A stretch of 64,000 bases of DNA from a virus. The stretch lies in the IMG/VR virus record IMGVR_UViG_3300025030_000080, positions 1 to 64,000 of that record; one strand, written 5' to 3'. The notes beneath the pieces are model-generated. The model did not search any database, was not told the origin of the DNA, and saw only the letters and a program-made list of their open reading frames with translations. Made by a program: the position numbers and the translations under genes. Positions 1,862-45,952 of this stretch are shown in pieces (position 1 is the first letter of the stretch; each line of letters opens with the position of its first letter).

Positions 1862-2714
1862 TCTGATCTCCTTTTAATAAAACTCTCCATTTGTTGTATA
1901 AATCCCTCTTTAAAAAACTAGAAAATCCATAATCCATGCATATTCCCTCAAATACATTGAAATCTAATTTATCTGGTACTAAATCTACGGGGGTTGATTT
2001 TTTATGGGGGAGTTTTACTAAGGAATAATTAAAAGTAGGGTCAAAAGCATGTATATCTTGATATTTTTTGGAAGAAACTCCTAATTCTGATTTTAGATAT
2101 TTTATAGCAGTTTTTTCACCAACTCCCACCACTCCCTTCACGGAGTCAGATGAACACCCTGCGACCGATTTAACGTAGTACCACATATTGGGATCTATTC
2201 CTTTTTCTTCTATGAAATCATCTTTAGAGTAAATTTTCTTTTCTCTTGGATTATAAATAGACACTTTTGAATTTAGCAATTGATATAAATCTTCGTCCGA
2301 AGTTACGATATAGGTATGATCAAATTCCCAAGCATGGTCATTAGCTATATGAGCAATAATATCGTCTGCTTCTAATCCTGTTTGAATAAAATTATTTTGA
2401 AATCCTAATTTAGGAAGAACTTTGGTACGAATCTCTGTAAATTGGGGTTTACCAGAACGAATTATATCTTCCATCTCGGGATCTTCAACTTGAGGGCGTT
2501 TTTTATAATCGGGGTAAACGTCTCTACGATATGATTTTCTAGAATCCCAAGCAAATGTAAATCGAGGTTGTTCAAAATCTTCGGATAACTTTAAAATCTC
2601 TCTCATGAAACCAAATATAACTCCAGTGGAGTGTTCCTCATAAGAAAGTCCCATCATTGATAACATGGCTCTATATGCTATGAAATTAGAATCAATTATT
2701 AAAAGGTTGCTCAA
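1848..2714 (-). CDS. 5'-3' exonuclease/flap endonuclease (PolI N-terminal / T4 RNase H-like)
   Basis: LIIDSNFIAYR, AWDS...YRRDVYPDYK, EADDII, TSDEDLYQL, GCSSDSVKGVVGVGEKTA. Confidence 0.92.
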   Translation of the reverse strand: MSNLLIIDSNFIAYRAMLSMMGLSYEEHSTGVIFGFMREILKLSEDFEQPRFTFAWDSRKSYRRDVYPDYKKRPQVEDPEMEDIIRSGKPQFTEIRTKVLPKLGFQNNFIQTGLEADDIIAHIANDHAWEFDHTYIVTSDEDLYQLLNSKVSIYNPREKKIYSKDDFIEEKGIDPNMWYYVKSVAGCSSDSVKGVVGVGEKTAIKYLKSELGVSSKKYQDIHAFDPTFNYSLVKLPHKKSTPVDLVPDKLDFNVFEGICMDYGFSSFLKRDLYNKWRVLLKGDQNAID

Positions 2715-2767
2715 ATTTTTTCCTTAATTTTTACGTTTGGTTTCAATTTTATCTCTTTCCATTAGTA

Positions 2768-2885
2768 TGGTGGTCGGGAGTGCCTTCACCCCAAGACATT
2801 TGCTTGGTCAGCACGTTTACCATCCGTGTCTCGCTATCGACGGGCGACAACAATCCCCGCTACTCAAGCAAGAACACTCCCAACC
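2768..2885 (-). ncRNA. putative 118-nt rod-shaped RNA with 3' ACCA end
   Basis: 5' GGUUGGGAGUGUU pairs with 3' GGCACUCCCGACC, followed by unpaired ACCA; inner stem UUGCUUG/CAAGCAA; GC-rich intergenic sequence in an AT-rich genome. Confidence 0.6.
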
Positions 2886-2887
2886 TA

Positions 2888-3009
2888 CGTACCAGTTTCA
2901 GCAGCCGACTCACTGCTTAACGCTCCCTGGTACGATTAAAATGGGGAAGCGGCCCGACCGTTAGTTGTAGTTGTCGCGCTACCACCACAGACCCTAGCCA
3001 CCTCCCCAT
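2888..3009 (-). ncRNA. two further GC-rich hairpins (2888-2934 and 2941-3009), putative ncRNA
   Basis: CGUACCAG/CUGGUACG with inner AGCAG/CUGCU; AUGGGGAGGUGGC/GCCGCUUCCCCAU. Confidence 0.45.
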
Positions 3010-3078
3010 CTCGTAGATGGCTATGGAAACTTTCTCTCCATATTTAATCCCCCTGAAAAGGACTAGGGAAAACCATCT

Positions 3079-3312
3079 TTAATCTTTTACTTCTCCAGTT
3101 ACTATTACCCAATCATTTCCTATCATATCTCCTTCAGATACCAAGAGCCTTGATATACTTCCATCTTTCTTTTTAATGGATAAAAATCCGTTGTAAAGAA
3201 AGATGAATACATTAGGATTATCCCACTCCAGTTTGGAAACTCTCCCCCCAAGAATGATATTTTGAATAGCTTGAGAAAAGTTCATCGTTTTTCTCAAAGG
3301 TGTTTGTTTCAT
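3079..3312 (-). CDS. DUF2829 / Tad2-like small protein (possible anti-defence nucleotide sponge)
   Basis: MNFSQAI...GGRVSKLEW...SEGDMIGNDWVIV resembles the DUF2829 pattern MxFxxAL..GxKVxRxxW...DxLAxDW. Confidence 0.55.
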   Translation of the reverse strand: MKQTPLRKTMNFSQAIQNIILGGRVSKLEWDNPNVFIFLYNGFLSIKKKDGSISRLLVSEGDMIGNDWVIVTGEVKD

Positions 3313-3316
3313 TACT

Positions 3317-4519
3317 TTATCCCCTGGGCCTTAGACCACGCCGAGGTCCTGTAGCAGGAGCCGGTGCCGGAGCCGCTGTTGCAGCCGGTCTAGGTGTAGG
3401 TCTAGGGGTTGCCGGGGCTGCTGGAGTAGGACGGGGAGTGGGTGCCGCAGGGGCTTCTGCCTTGGCTGCATCTAATTTATCTTTCTCAGCCGAGCAATCA
3501 TCCCAAATGGGACAAGCAGCACATTCGTTATACTTTTCACAATCCTCCCCAAATACTCCCCCTACGGGACAAGTTTGGGCACCAGCCGTACCCGGAGCCG
3601 CCGTTGTTTGGACTCGCGGAGTTGCACGGGGGGTAGGAGTTGGATTAACAGCCGGGGCAGGTGTCGGAGGTTCCGCAGCAGGAGCAGCTACCCTGCTTCT
3701 CAATCGAGATTCTGCCGGAGGGACTACTACAGGCTGAGGAGGGGGTAATTCCTCTGTGGGTGCTATATCCCCTCCCCCTGTTCCTTGAAAAGCCTGGTTA
3801 ATTTCATCATATGTAGCATAGTTAATGCATTCATCTAATACGAAAGCAGCGTCAAGAACTTCATCAGGAATGACATAATTCCTATCTACAAACTTATGGG
3901 CAAGAAACTCTGAATTCCGTTTGGTCCCCTTACGGGTAAATGAAATGGACTTTCCGGTATCTGGATCAGAGAAAGCTACGTACATATCGGTGGATTTTCC
4001 GGCCCCCCGAGTAGGAGTTTTAGCCAAAGGAGCAATATGCTTTTCCATAAACCAATGGGCGGCATCGAAGATTTGAACTCCCTTACCCTCTTCTTTTTCA
4101 CTATCATAGCAAAGGATGTTATAAATACTTCGACGCTTGGGGGTAAGTTCTTTCACCAATTCTTCATCGTAATCTTCCTGTCTGCGAACTTCTTCACGAT
4201 ATTCGCAGATAGGGCATTGCTTGTTGTAGTTACGGGCCTGGCAAACATATGCATCTTGGTTAACCCCCACTCCGTAATGAACCCAAAGAATTAAAACGTA
4301 GTTGGGTTCCCCCGGTTTGGTATTAGGATCATGGTTTCCTGCGGGAAAGGGAATAATATCAATGATGTGTTCCCCTTCTCCACATTTCCAAAGTTTACTA
4401 GCAAATTCATCTTTGAAAATGTTCTTAAACTGACCAGAATCATCTCTTTTCTCATACGATTCTTGAGTCTTTCTTGCAAGGGCTTCCTTCATCGCTGCCC
4501 TTCGATCAAGATTTGCCAT
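3317..4519 (-). CDS. gp32-like single-stranded DNA-binding protein with Pro/Ala-rich tail and Cys-rich motif
   Basis: IDIIPF, VHYGVG...CQARNYNKQCPICEY, SDPDTGKSISFTRKG; start placed at MANLDRR (4519) behind a GGAGGAGGG RBS. Confidence 0.75.
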   Translation of the reverse strand: MANLDRRAAMKEALARKTQESYEKRDDSGQFKNIFKDEFASKLWKCGEGEHIIDIIPFPAGNHDPNTKPGEPNYVLILWVHYGVGVNQDAYVCQARNYNKQCPICEYREEVRRQEDYDEELVKELTPKRRSIYNILCYDSEKEEGKGVQIFDAAHWFMEKHIAPLAKTPTRGAGKSTDMYVAFSDPDTGKSISFTRKGTKRNSEFLAHKFVDRNYVIPDEVLDAAFVLDECINYATYDEINQAFQGTGGGDIAPTEELPPPQPVVVPPAESRLRSRVAAPAAEPPTPAPAVNPTPTPRATPRVQTTAAPGTAGAQTCPVGGVFGEDCEKYNECAACPIWDDCSAEKDKLDAAKAEAPAAPTPRPTPAAPATPRPTPRPAATAAPAPAPATGPRRGLRPRG

Positions 4520-4715
4520 TTTTGCCCTCCTCCCCTTTCGGGGTGTTATCCTTGAACAAGTCAAGGAGTTTTTGGGTGTATTTAATCTTAGAGTCCCACC
4601 AACTGTTCAAACAAGCGGTTGATACCACTCTTGTAACAAGATAGATCATCATCATTGCTATTGGTATTCCTATTAAGAAACAAACTACTTGTAACCAAAT
4701 TGGTATATTGGTCAT
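4506..4715 (-). CDS. small membrane protein
   Basis: 69 aa with an N-terminal hydrophobic helix; overlaps neighbours as in an operon. Confidence 0.6.
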   Translation of the reverse strand: MTNIPIWLQVVCFLIGIPIAMMMIYLVTRVVSTACLNSWWDSKIKYTQKLLDLFKDNTPKGEEGKNGKS

Positions 4716-14839: not shown

Positions 14840-15652
14840 TCAATCTCCTATTTTAACATAAGAATAAATTTCTCTTTTTTCCACAGGACAAAGTTTATCT
14901 TTAAATATTCTCAAGCTTTCTATCCCCATAATTCCTCCATCATTAACTAATTTATTTTGATTCAAAATAACGGGGTCTGTATAAAATAAATATCTTTGGT
15001 ATTCATTCAAAAATTTAATATTTCTAGAAAATGAAAATCGGAAGTTAATATAAAAATAATTGGAATCCCAAATATTGATTCCAAGAATATATCCATTTTT
15101 ATCTACCAAAATTTTCCTATTATTTCCATTAAAAATATAATTAGTCATAACTTCATCATCATGAATTTCTTGATTTCCTTCTTTATTTTTTAACCATTCT
15201 ATGAATAAATCTTTTAGTTGATTTTCATGATTATCATTCGCTTCAATATACTGCAAAGGGGAATTCCCATACCGTCCAGGAAATTTACGGATATTCTTTC
15301 GGAAAACTTGAAATTTGTTTCCAGTTAGATCTAGGAAATGACGAGGGTTATAAATATGTTCTAATTCCAAAAATTCTTTTTTATAATTAGAAGGCATAGA
15401 CCAATTGGGAAAACTAGCCCATATATGAGTAGCCCAATTTTGGTAATCTCCGCTTATGCTATTTCCATTGGGGAGTAATTCCCCCGTATTCATATTTATT
15501 GGGGGGAATAAAATCCATTCGTTGTGTTTCCAATAAATAAAATCACCCGTAATTTCCTCTTTAATTTTAGCTCTTTGAAAATATTCTTCAGAGCAGGGAA
15601 AAGTAGGAATTATCTTATATTTTTTTAACAATTCCAAATATTGGTTTTTCAA
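14840..15652 (-). CDS. DUF2156 / MprF C-terminal-like GNAT-fold protein (aminoacyl transferase-like)
   Basis: HIYNPRHFLDLTGNKFQVFRKNIRKF and VNDGGIMGIESLRIFKDKLCP resemble the DUF2156 motifs YxY..L..LxGxK...KRN..N.F and IN...D.G..GLR..K..Y.P. Confidence 0.6.
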   Translation of the reverse strand: MKNQYLELLKKYKIIPTFPCSEEYFQRAKIKEEITGDFIYWKHNEWILFPPINMNTGELLPNGNSISGDYQNWATHIWASFPNWSMPSNYKKEFLELEHIYNPRHFLDLTGNKFQVFRKNIRKFPGRYGNSPLQYIEANDNHENQLKDLFIEWLKNKEGNQEIHDDEVMTNYIFNGNNRKILVDKNGYILGINIWDSNYFYINFRFSFSRNIKFLNEYQRYLFYTDPVILNQNKLVNDGGIMGIESLRIFKDKLCPVEKREIYSYVKIGD

Positions 15653-29084: not shown

Positions 29085-30461
29085 TCATAGTATATCTCCT
29101 CTGTCTGGTTGATACGGAGAATTTTCCTTAGTAATAATATCAGGGGTCCCCCTTCTGTCAATTCTTCCCTTACCTATCAAATAACGAGTTAATACTTCTG
29201 TGTAAGTATGGGAAGATCGTACATTTCCCGTAACAACTTTATCAATTCCCCATCTATTAATCAAAGAATCTATTACTTTTTCGCACCATTCTCTGGCCCC
29301 TATTGGCATATTTAAACGTGGATGAAGTTCTCTAATTCTATCGTGAAGTCTATTAGCCCCTATAATAAAATCATTTTCTTCTTTTTGGTTAAACTCTCCA
29401 CTCGCCCCTAATAAAATTTTATCACGATAAAATTCTTTTAACCATCTTGTATTTTCGGGGTTTTTCTCTTTTTCTTTTTTAACCATGAAAGTTACTGGTT
29501 CAGGTTCGTTTTCTAAACAATGTAAAAATTGACTTTTAATTGACGAGGCAAAACGATTGTAAAAGAAAGTACCTAACCCCAAATTTTTAAAAATTGATTT
29601 ATTTACTGGTCGGTAATTCAGATTTGTAGCTATTAATTTATATTTATCTATCACCGAAATTATTTCTTCTTTTGAATAATTTTTATTATTAGTTAAACCC
29701 TCTCCTATAAAAAGTTTTCCATCTAATACTTTTTCTATGATAGAAACTATATCTGTAAATGTTTTTGTTGGTTTGGCGTAGCCTTGATTATTCCATGCCG
29801 GCATATGATGATGGGGTAAACCCGGCGAGGAATTCCAATAATTGATAATATCGAGAGTGTCTTTCCTATACCGTTGACGAGGGGTAACTTCAAATTCTAT
29901 AGATATAGATTTATTTCTTTTAATTAAAGACTGGGTTGAATTTAAGCCTAAATTATGAACGTCGGTTTCACCTGCTTTTGGTGAAACCCCCGAATCTTTC
30001 GAGAGAAAAGATTCGTTAGAATCTTTTGGATCTAAAGATTCTGGTATAGGTTCAATAATTATAGGTTTACTTAAAGAGATTCCGCTTTGAACGGAATCCA
30101 GATTCCGCTTTGAACGGAATCCAGATTCCGCCCATTCTTGTATTTTATTACGATCAATTCTATACCAATTTTTGGCCGGTATCCCTTTTCGAGATACTTG
30201 AATAAAATTTAAATCTTGAAGTATTTTAGTGGAAGATGTTTGAACATCTTCGCTAAATCCAGTTCTATTTTTCAATAAACTTTGAAGCATATAAAAATAC
30301 TCTCCGGGTTGTATTAATTCTTGTTTAATTAAGTAATTTTCCCAATCTATTAAGTCTCCTAAAATTATAGTAACGAAAGGACCTAATTTTATTAATACGG
30401 AACGGTTACAAGCTATGAAATTTGCAAATGGAATTTGAGATATATTCCTATTATTTTCCAT
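29085..30461 (-). CDS. putative replication initiator (N-terminal winged-HTH)
   Basis: YFY...LKNRTGFS..Q......L....FI.V.RKGIPAKNWYRID pattern of phage initiators; contains internal repeats; lies next to dnaB. Confidence 0.65.
   Translation of the reverse strand: MENNRNISQIPFANFIACNRSVLIKLGPFVTIILGDLIDWENYLIKQELIQPGEYFYMLQSLLKNRTGFSEDVQTSSTKILQDLNFIQVSRKGIPAKNWYRIDRNKIQEWAESGFRSKRNLDSVQSGISLSKPIIIEPIPESLDPKDSNESFLSKDSGVSPKAGETDVHNLGLNSTQSLIKRNKSISIEFEVTPRQRYRKDTLDIINYWNSSPGLPHHHMPAWNNQGYAKPTKTFTDIVSIIEKVLDGKLFIGEGLTNNKNYSKEEIISVIDKYKLIATNLNYRPVNKSIFKNLGLGTFFYNRFASSIKSQFLHCLENEPEPVTFMVKKEKEKNPENTRWLKEFYRDKILLGASGEFNQKEENDFIIGANRLHDRIRELHPRLNMPIGAREWCEKVIDSLINRWGIDKVVTGNVRSSHTYTEVLTRYLIGKGRIDRRGTPDIITKENSPYQPDRGDIL
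30077..30131. repeat. iteron-like 23-bp tandem repeats (AGATTCCGCTTTGAACGGAATCC x2 plus a partial copy)
   Basis: Directly visible; each unit contains the inverted repeat GATTCCG/CGGAATC. Confidence 0.8.
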
Positions 30462-45841: not shown

Positions 45842-45853
45842 ATTTTATCGGTG

Positions 45854-45934
45854 TCCCCGGACCCAGATCAGCCCCTTCAAGGTGACTAACCCGAAGGTTG
45901 GTTGTCATCCGGCTTAACCTACTGGGTCCGGGGA
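45854..45934 (-). ncRNA. GC-rich rod hairpin with cUUCGg loop upstream of tRNA-Leu
   Basis: Perfect 13-bp stem TCCCCGGACCCAG/CTGGGTCCGGGGA; apical AACC-TTCG-GGTT. Confidence 0.5.
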
Positions 45935-45952
45935 ATCAAATTTTGTTTACCC

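Follow-up and report, generated by a model that had tools for sequence, protein, structure and literature searches.

A conserved CCA-ended RNA on a four-way-junction body in uncultured T4-like phages

Phages are known to carry tRNAs. The MALAT1 mascRNA and the tRNA-like RNAs of murid herpesvirus 68 are uncharged, non-decoding tRNA mimics that bear a CCA end and are excised by RNase P, and in these systems structures lying upstream stabilise what remains of the transcript. Two RNAs encoded by bacteriophage T4, rnaC and rnaD, are annotated only as 'small, stable RNA', and rnaC has tRNA-like parts (a T arm). RNase P also processes phage RNAs that are not tRNAs, namely the M3 RNA of phi80, the C4 RNA of P1/P7 and the T4 gene 32 mRNA (PMC11143913). 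The locus described here is that of a real, conserved RNA gene outside the known families, a mimic of the tRNA acceptor carried on a four-way-junction body, which we call module C.

The window, that is, the whole stretch of DNA analysed (64,000 nucleotides), comprises positions 1-64,000 of the IMG/VR record IMGVR_UViG_3300025030_000080, which is 76 kb long in full. It belongs to an uncultured, T4-like phage of ~33% GC with nearly all of its genes on the minus strand, and the sequencing runs listed as containing the stretch are all DNA runs, from groundwater, soil or sediment. Read along the minus strand, the gene for gp32 (3317-4564) is followed by a Tad2-like gene (3079-3312), a GC-rich gap of 364 nt, rnh (1848-2714), whose product is a 5'-3' exonuclease of the RNase H type, and a RecA/UvsX homologue. 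Within the gap lie three structured modules, A, B and C, the last of which runs on the minus strand from its 5' end at 2885 (GGUUGGGAGUGUU) to its 3' end at 2768 (GGCACUCCCGACC, then ACCA). The features are:

2938..3013, minus strand: module A, a long GC-rich hairpin, then UUUU (counterparts in contigs L003, L032 and L033)
2888..2934, minus strand: module B, a hairpin with an asymmetric internal loop, GGAGCGUUAA / UGAAA, 2 nt upstream of module C
2768..2885, minus strand: module C, a 118-nt four-way-junction RNA with an encoded ACCA 3' end (folding, covariance-model scores of 115-122 bits, five homologues)
2874..2885, minus strand: 5' strand of the terminal helix P1, GGUUGGGAGUGU (12 pairs, 100% paired in the five sequences)
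2829..2873, minus strand: P2, the variable arm (5 of 7 base pairs changed on both sides)
2812..2828, minus strand: P3, the hairpin CACG-GAUGGUAAA-CGUG (alignment, and motif comparison with the T-box apical loop; PMC11404447)
2808..2811, minus strand: linker J3/4, CUGA, or CGGA in one variant (alignment)
2791..2807, minus strand: P4, the 5-bp hairpin CCAAG-CAAAUGU-CUUGG (covariation)
2784..2790, minus strand: linker J4/1, GGUGAAG, consensus G-N-GA-N-G, 6-7 nt (alignment)
2772..2783, minus strand: 3' strand of P1, GCACUCCCGACC (alignment)
2768..2771, minus strand: unpaired discriminator and CCA, ACCA in the window (CCA in all five variants)
2715..2767, minus strand: A/U-rich spacer with the ribosome-binding site of rnh, the 5'-3' exonuclease gene downstream

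The terminal helix of module C, GGUUGGGAGUGU(U)/(G)GCACUCCCGACC, consists of 13 uninterrupted pairs, of which three are U-G, and leads into the unpaired ACCA, just as a preliminary description of this DNA had it (a 13-bp stem with G-U pairs, then a free ACCA). Since the thirteenth pair, U13-G102, competes with the invariant pair U13-A57 at the base of P2, the length of P1 is best given as 12-13 bp. Further inner stems, which the same description had noticed, are present as P2, P3 and P4, but its 'rod RNA' was mistaken: both folding and alignment give a four-way junction, built of the terminal helix P1, the hypervariable arm P2, the invariant hairpin P3 and the covarying 5-bp hairpin P4, with no linker between P1 and P2 and none between P2 and P3. 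P3 and P4 are hairpins of 4-5 bp with loops of 7-9 nt. The minimum free energy of module C is -50.3 kcal/mol (z = -3.8), a value that none of 200 shuffled sequences equalled. In all five variants of the RNA the sense fold surpasses the antisense fold by 7-18 kcal/mol, an advantage due to the G-U pairs, and this strand specificity means that the constraint bears on RNA and not on DNA. In a stem scan of the 64-kb window, module C was the only place where NCCA comes after a GC-rich 13-pair stem.

Relatives were sought with protein-anchored (rnh, gp32) and pattern-based searches over IMG/VR, the JGI metagenomes and the GTDB genomes, and two covariance models of module C were built and used. Five distinct variants are now at hand, all in related uncultured phage contigs: that of the window, the L003 type (seven near-identical contigs), L010/L106, L101/L104 and L033. 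The junction is kept in every one of them. In the model-fitted alignment of the five, standard pairs occupy 97.1% of the pair cells, 8 of the 28 pairs have changed on both sides (one in P1, five in P2, two in P4), and the covariation score is 0.40, compared with 0.07-0.13 when the partners are slid and with no score as high in 500 shuffles; these figures overstate independence, the alignment having been fitted to the structure and the sequences being related, with few independent events, all within one clade. A separate MAFFT/RNAalifold run returned the same helices. Covariation in related phage contigs, one of the checks originally proposed for this RNA, is thus present. P1 shows one G-C to A-U double change and four pairs that vary through G-U, and P4 shows double changes in two pairs (A-U to C-G and A-U to G-C). 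P2 has a 7-bp base that is kept as pairing only, around an interior of 30-45 nt that is wholly different among the variants. P3, with the consensus CACG-GAUGGNAAM-CGUG, varies only at N (U, C or A) and at one flanking base. NCCA stands directly 3' of P1 in all five variants (ACCA in two, UCCA in three), while the discriminator (A or U) and everything beyond the CCA diverge, so the CCA-ended phage RNA that had been supposed here is indeed a conserved and strand-specific one.

It is very improbable that module C is a product of chance or a non-functional relic, such as a decayed tRNA gene or a DNA-level repeat. The small size of the family and the silence of the Rfam tRNA model would suit such an origin, but compensatory changes have accumulated in three helices, the loops are invariant across variants whose P2 interiors cannot be aligned, the fold is strand-specific and the RNA has been retained in two genomic slots.

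As far as the searches reach, module C is confined to one clade of groundwater T4-like phages. A scan with the P3-core pattern returned the same clade and one chance coding match in IMG/VR, added L101 and L104, along with chance matches, in the JGI metagenomes, and gave only chance coding matches in the GTDB genomes. A covariance-model search of 80 gp32 loci brought in one new member, L033. Run with filters off, the model detected no paralogue of module C in the whole window, and it detected no module C in the whole records of two relatives, G003 and G004. Among GenBank phages, blastn with positions 2500-3400 found no match and tblastn with the rnh protein gave matches of at most 34% identity; the phage therefore has no cultured relatives. 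Nothing in the whole window reached the gathering score of any Rfam 15 model, searches of positions 2300-3500 and of the homologous L033 and L032 regions at E<=10 returned noise only, and ARAGORN made no call at the module C locus; the comparison with Rfam that had been recommended thus turned up no known family. A sister phage, G001 (IMGVR_UViG_3300025289_000025; 90 kb, CheckV 97% complete), carries a module C of the L003 type. Its rnh is 97% identical to that of the window in protein and its adjacent RNA 73% identical in nucleotides, from which it follows that the region around rnh is mosaic.

The phage has tRNAs of its own, tRNA-Leu(UAA) and tRNA-Met, whose encoded ACCA is followed by AAUAAU or AAUUA and then by a ribosome-binding site; the 3' context of module C is A/U-rich, as theirs is. 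A filter for CCA-ended RNAs of 50-200 nt, which required G as the first nucleotide, a GC-rich stem of 7 bp or more with a limit on G-U pairs, and NCCA after the stem, was applied to the coding strand of the 76-kb record and returned only the two tRNAs, a second ACCA-ended RNA and the module C locus; in 1.3 Mb of loci from other phages it gave ~9 distinct hits. Module C is picked up through a different 7-bp pairing with the same ACCA at its end, the three G-U pairs of the 13-bp stem being above the G-U limit. The second RNA runs from 28129 to 28028 on the minus strand, starts with G and has a 7-bp stem, GGUGGUG/CACCACC (z = -3.8). It shares G1-C, G2-C, U3-A and the discriminator A with module C on a different body, both of which had been pointed out earlier and hold: the covariance model finds no match in it at E<=10, and the two RNAs are not homologous. 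A TATAAT lies 5 nt upstream of this second RNA, which also contains UGGUAA, as does P3 of module C. In a sister lineage its slot (L109:1690-1810) is occupied by a different element, GC-rich and pseudoknot-capable. A long GC-rich hairpin, CCCCGGACCCAG...CUGGGUCCGGGG (window 45842-45952, minus strand), ends 12 nt before tRNA-Leu(UAA), a layout of hairpin and then CCA-ended RNA that resembles modules A and B followed by C. Two other candidates were set aside: a tRNA-Leu(CAA) called by ARAGORN at 30071-30150 (minus strand) lies inside a 458-aa open reading frame, is unseen by Rfam and is probably false, and a 'GAGAGGGG...GCCA' candidate in G001 lies inside a 147-aa open reading frame. ARAGORN finds no tRNA genes in G001, yet this phage keeps module C, which excludes a role tied to the phage's own tRNAs.

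Module C is situated between gp32 and rnh in the window, in G001 and in L010. In L033 it again lies downstream of gp32, and the contig stops before any rnh. In L101 an orf293 homologue comes first, then the gene of a GIY-YIG homing endonuclease, then modules B and C, a pair of small open reading frames, a DUF362 gene and a gene of the radical-SAM type, and the slot of module C is the one that holds the second ACCA-ended RNA in the window. The same slot thus houses two unrelated CCA-ended RNAs in different phages, module C itself occupies two slots, and the genes adjoining it differ in every variant. Given these two slots and the varying neighbours, module C is a free-standing RNA cassette and not the leader of one gene. 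No sigma-70-like promoter was found next to it on the minus strand.

One alternative is that module C acts in cis, as a processing signal of the 'tRNA punctuation' kind for which MALAT1/mascRNA and the punctuation of mitochondrial transcripts by tRNAs offer analogues. Its fold would attract RNase P and cause a polycistronic message to be cut, the upstream mRNA keeping the protective hairpins A and B, the downstream mRNA gaining a fresh 5' end and the excised RNA being a by-product. Module C is always found between co-directional genes and always has a hairpin on its 5' side, a ribosome-binding site comes 10-20 nt after the CCA in four of the five variants, and a hairpin precedes a tRNA at tRNA-Leu as well; moreover, RNase P is known to cut the gene 32 mRNA of T4, and module C is downstream of gp32 in four of the five variants. 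We nevertheless regard punctuation as an unlikely function. A helix resembling the acceptor and T stems would suffice for it, whereas the constancy of the P3 loop and J3/4 points to an additional, specific partner; module C also moves between unrelated gene slots, and it is absent from L028, L029 and L032, which are equally related and have the same gene order.

The neighbourhood contains several other structured elements. Module B precedes module C in four of the five variants (counterparts at L003:2160-2209, L101:8081-8135 on the minus strand and L033:3860-3918), and both of its stems covary about the loop GGWGCRUU.. / U(U)GAAA. It matches no ribozyme or riboswitch model, and on this ground it was rejected as a known self-cleaving ribozyme. 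Module A may serve the Tad2-like/gp32 message upstream of it as a leaky terminator or by stabilising its 3' end. L003 has a GC-rich structured intergenic element at 2590-2716 (-54.3 kcal/mol, z = -5.2), between two small open reading frames upstream of rnh, and the window lacks it. L033 (3575-3860) and L032 (3905-4170) have ~300 nt of GC-rich structured RNA separating the Tad2-like gene from module A; this interval differs between the two contigs and has no Rfam match. GGUAAGGAAAGUAAA-GGAG is a motif common to L033 and L034. As for the genes themselves, the one resembling Tad2 (Thoeris anti-defence 2; 3079-3312, minus strand) encodes 77 aa and comes directly after gp32; it is present in L028, L032 and L033 and absent from L003 and L010. 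The C-terminus of gp32 (window 3317-3800, minus strand) forms a long tail rich in Pro and Ala, GC-rich in its coding sequence (58%), around a Cys-rich block, CPVGG..G.DCE...ECNGC..WD.CS, conserved across 19 homologues and unusual for gp32.

Within module C, the invariant GUGUU of inner P1 has two possible pairing partners, both invariant, GGCAC in P1 itself and GACAC where P2 meets P3 (window 2873-2885 versus 2825-2830, minus strand), and this alternative pairing hints at a possible conformational switch. Together with the GC-rich intergenic modules that have no CCA end (A, B, L003:2590-2716, the L032/L033 upstream intervals and L109:1690-1810), it would be compatible with a structured RNA of an unrelated role on which the CCA is incidental, for instance a ribozyme, a ligand sensor, a regulatory element that binds protein, or a fold that stabilises the mRNA. 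This, too, appears unlikely to us: the CCA comes right after P1 in five variants out of five although the flanking bases vary, module C matches no known ribozyme or riboswitch model even at E<=10, and the gene downstream is a different one in each variant, which argues against a gene-specific leader.

The reading that we prefer, and to which we give a probability of about 0.5, is that module C is a free-standing mimic of the tRNA acceptor, freed by processing of the tRNA type and acting through its acceptor and elbow-like features. It would be cotranscribed with the upstream genes; host RNase P would cut before G1, 2-7 nt past the preceding hairpin, so that G1 is the proposed +1 nucleotide of RNase P cleavage, and trimming from the 3' side would halt at the encoded NCCA. 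The product would be a helix of 12-13 bp ending in a single-stranded NCCA, with the junction and the T-loop-like P3 at the far end of the helix, where a tRNA has its elbow. We infer that this mature, non-decoding RNA is stable and works in trans, occupying a factor that reads acceptor ends or elbows, whether as a decoy, a sponge or an adaptor.

A length of 12-13 bp is that of the stack formed by the acceptor and T stems of a tRNA, which RNase P and the CCA-adding enzymes measure. The traits of a minihelix-type RNase P substrate, a P1 of this length, an invariant G1 and an NCCA tail, occur together in all five variants. Counting against release by RNase P, in four variants a hairpin ends only 2-4 nt before G1, and the RNase P protein normally contacts a single-stranded leader; the tRNA dimers of T4 have spacers as short as this gap. 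The P3 loop, which reads G-N-U-G-G-N-A and so contains the T-loop-like pentanucleotide UGGNA, may form an elbow-like knob at the junction, although the T-loop reading, drawn from a 7-nt motif with four fixed positions, is a lead, and a search for a partner T-loop of the AG-bulge type found none. With regard to the preliminary description, the statement that there is no tRNA body stands, ARAGORN and Rfam both being silent, and the statement that there is no T-loop has become doubtful on account of P3. A far less probable reading is that the UGGN of this loop captures the NCCA ends or the elbows of host tRNAs, in the manner of a trans-acting, T-box-like sponge. Pairing of this UGGN with the NCCA of module C itself was considered and rejected, the two being complementary in only three of the five variants and geometrically remote.

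An acceptor-like RNA might also be charged, and the phage very probably encodes, to judge from structural modelling, a transferase of the aminoacyl-tRNA type:

14840-15652, minus strand: DUF2156/Fem/MprF-like tandem-GNAT open reading frame (Pfam, AlphaFold, structural matches)

The match of this reading frame to Pfam LPG_synthase_C is weak (25.3 bits, below the cut-off of 27.5), its AlphaFold model has a pLDDT of 93 (44-sequence alignment), and its best PDB matches are 2hqy (DUF2156), MprF/L-PGS/A-PGS, FemX and aminoacyl-tRNA-dependent peptide synthases; Sbb17 is also among the best matches. Enzymes of the Fem/MprF type read mainly the acceptor arm, and G000, like the sister phage G001, carries this gene as well as the RNA. 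Module C might accordingly be imagined as a dedicated amino-acid carrier, charged by a host synthetase and serving the phage enzyme as donor; it would then be a viral amino-acid donor RNA uncoupled from the ribosome, its chemistry separate from translation. This dedicated role is possible but not favoured, and in our estimation quite improbable. The discriminator, which is a main identity element for most synthetases, alternates between A and U among close variants, and neither G3-U70 nor any other known minihelix identity set is present. The transferase family is widespread (at least 195 proteins, 92 viral loci), and its 75 loci outside the close kin of this phage have no module C (covariance model, +/-10 kb, 1.27 Mb) and hardly any tRNAs or CCA-ended RNAs over the same +/-10 kb. 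In the window the RNA and the transferase gene lie 12 kb apart. In viral contigs this gene usually adjoins thyX.

Module C offers a clean, minimal case of a conserved tRNA acceptor end placed on an unrelated four-way-junction body and moving as a cassette. If it is processed and stable, it would be a natural probe of the features of tRNA that are needed by bacterial RNase P, by CCA-handling enzymes and by tRNA-targeting defence and counter-defence, and it could act as a decoy where a defence targets the ends of tRNAs. The presence of a Fem/MprF-like transferase in the same phage makes the carrier idea cheap to test. Even on a modest reading, module C adds to Rfam a new family of phage RNAs, ~110 bases long, for which a consensus is defined.

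How, then, does module C compare with the described RNAs? In several respects it resembles tRNA (RF00005): it starts with G1, has a GC-rich terminal helix, a discriminator followed by an encoded CCA and an A/U-rich 3' flank, and arranges four helices in cloverleaf order with a 4-nt linker at the position of the variable loop. An acceptor of tRNA type can be written for it, GGUUGGG/CCCGACC and then ACCA. It departs from tRNA in a terminal helix of 12-13 bp, compared with 7, and in the linker of 6-7 nt before the 3' strand, and RF00005 does not match it even at E<=10. Neither a D arm nor a T arm is recognisable: there is no UUCRA T loop, P2 is hypervariable and the loop of P4 reads CAAAUGU or AAAUGA. 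There is no anticodon arm either; P3 can be drawn as A-U-GGN-A-A in L003, but among close variants the third 'anticodon' base may be U, C or A, and in the variants other than L003 the stem is 4 bp plus a G-A mismatch.

Among non-tRNA families, SRP/4.5S, 6S, tmRNA, Y RNA/YrlA and all other families of Rfam 15 give no match to module C at the gathering threshold, and tmRNA (whole or in two pieces), a 5S rRNA-like RNA and SRP RNA were rejected as its identity. With the T-box it shares a detail of P3, whose loop matches G68, U70, G71 and A74, the four highly conserved positions in the apical T-loop of Stem I (PMC11404447); the UGGN with which a T-box pairs with the NCCA of tRNA is also carried by P3. 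Unlike a T-box, module C has no AG-bulge partner, no specifier loop, no antiterminator and no match to the T-box model of Rfam.

The T4 RNAs species 1 (rnaC, 139 nt) and species 2 (rnaD, 119 nt) are likewise phage-encoded, non-decoding and somewhat larger than a tRNA. There is no homology between them and module C, the best covariance-model score on the T4 tRNA region being 8.5 bits (E = 0.31); they lie inside the tRNA cluster, whereas module C is 43-47 kb away from the tRNAs of its phage, and rnaD in its annotated form lacks the long terminal helix and the CCA that module C has. To the non-tRNA substrates of RNase P (pre-4.5S RNA, phi80 M3, P1/P7 C4 and the T4 gene 32 mRNA), module C is similar in having a helix near an RCC(A/C)-like tail (PMC11143913), again without homology, the SRP and other Rfam models being silent on it. 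The mascRNA and the RNAs of murid herpesvirus 68 are eukaryotic and real cloverleaves, whereas module C is bacterial-viral and has a different body; what it has in common with them is a likeness of concept.
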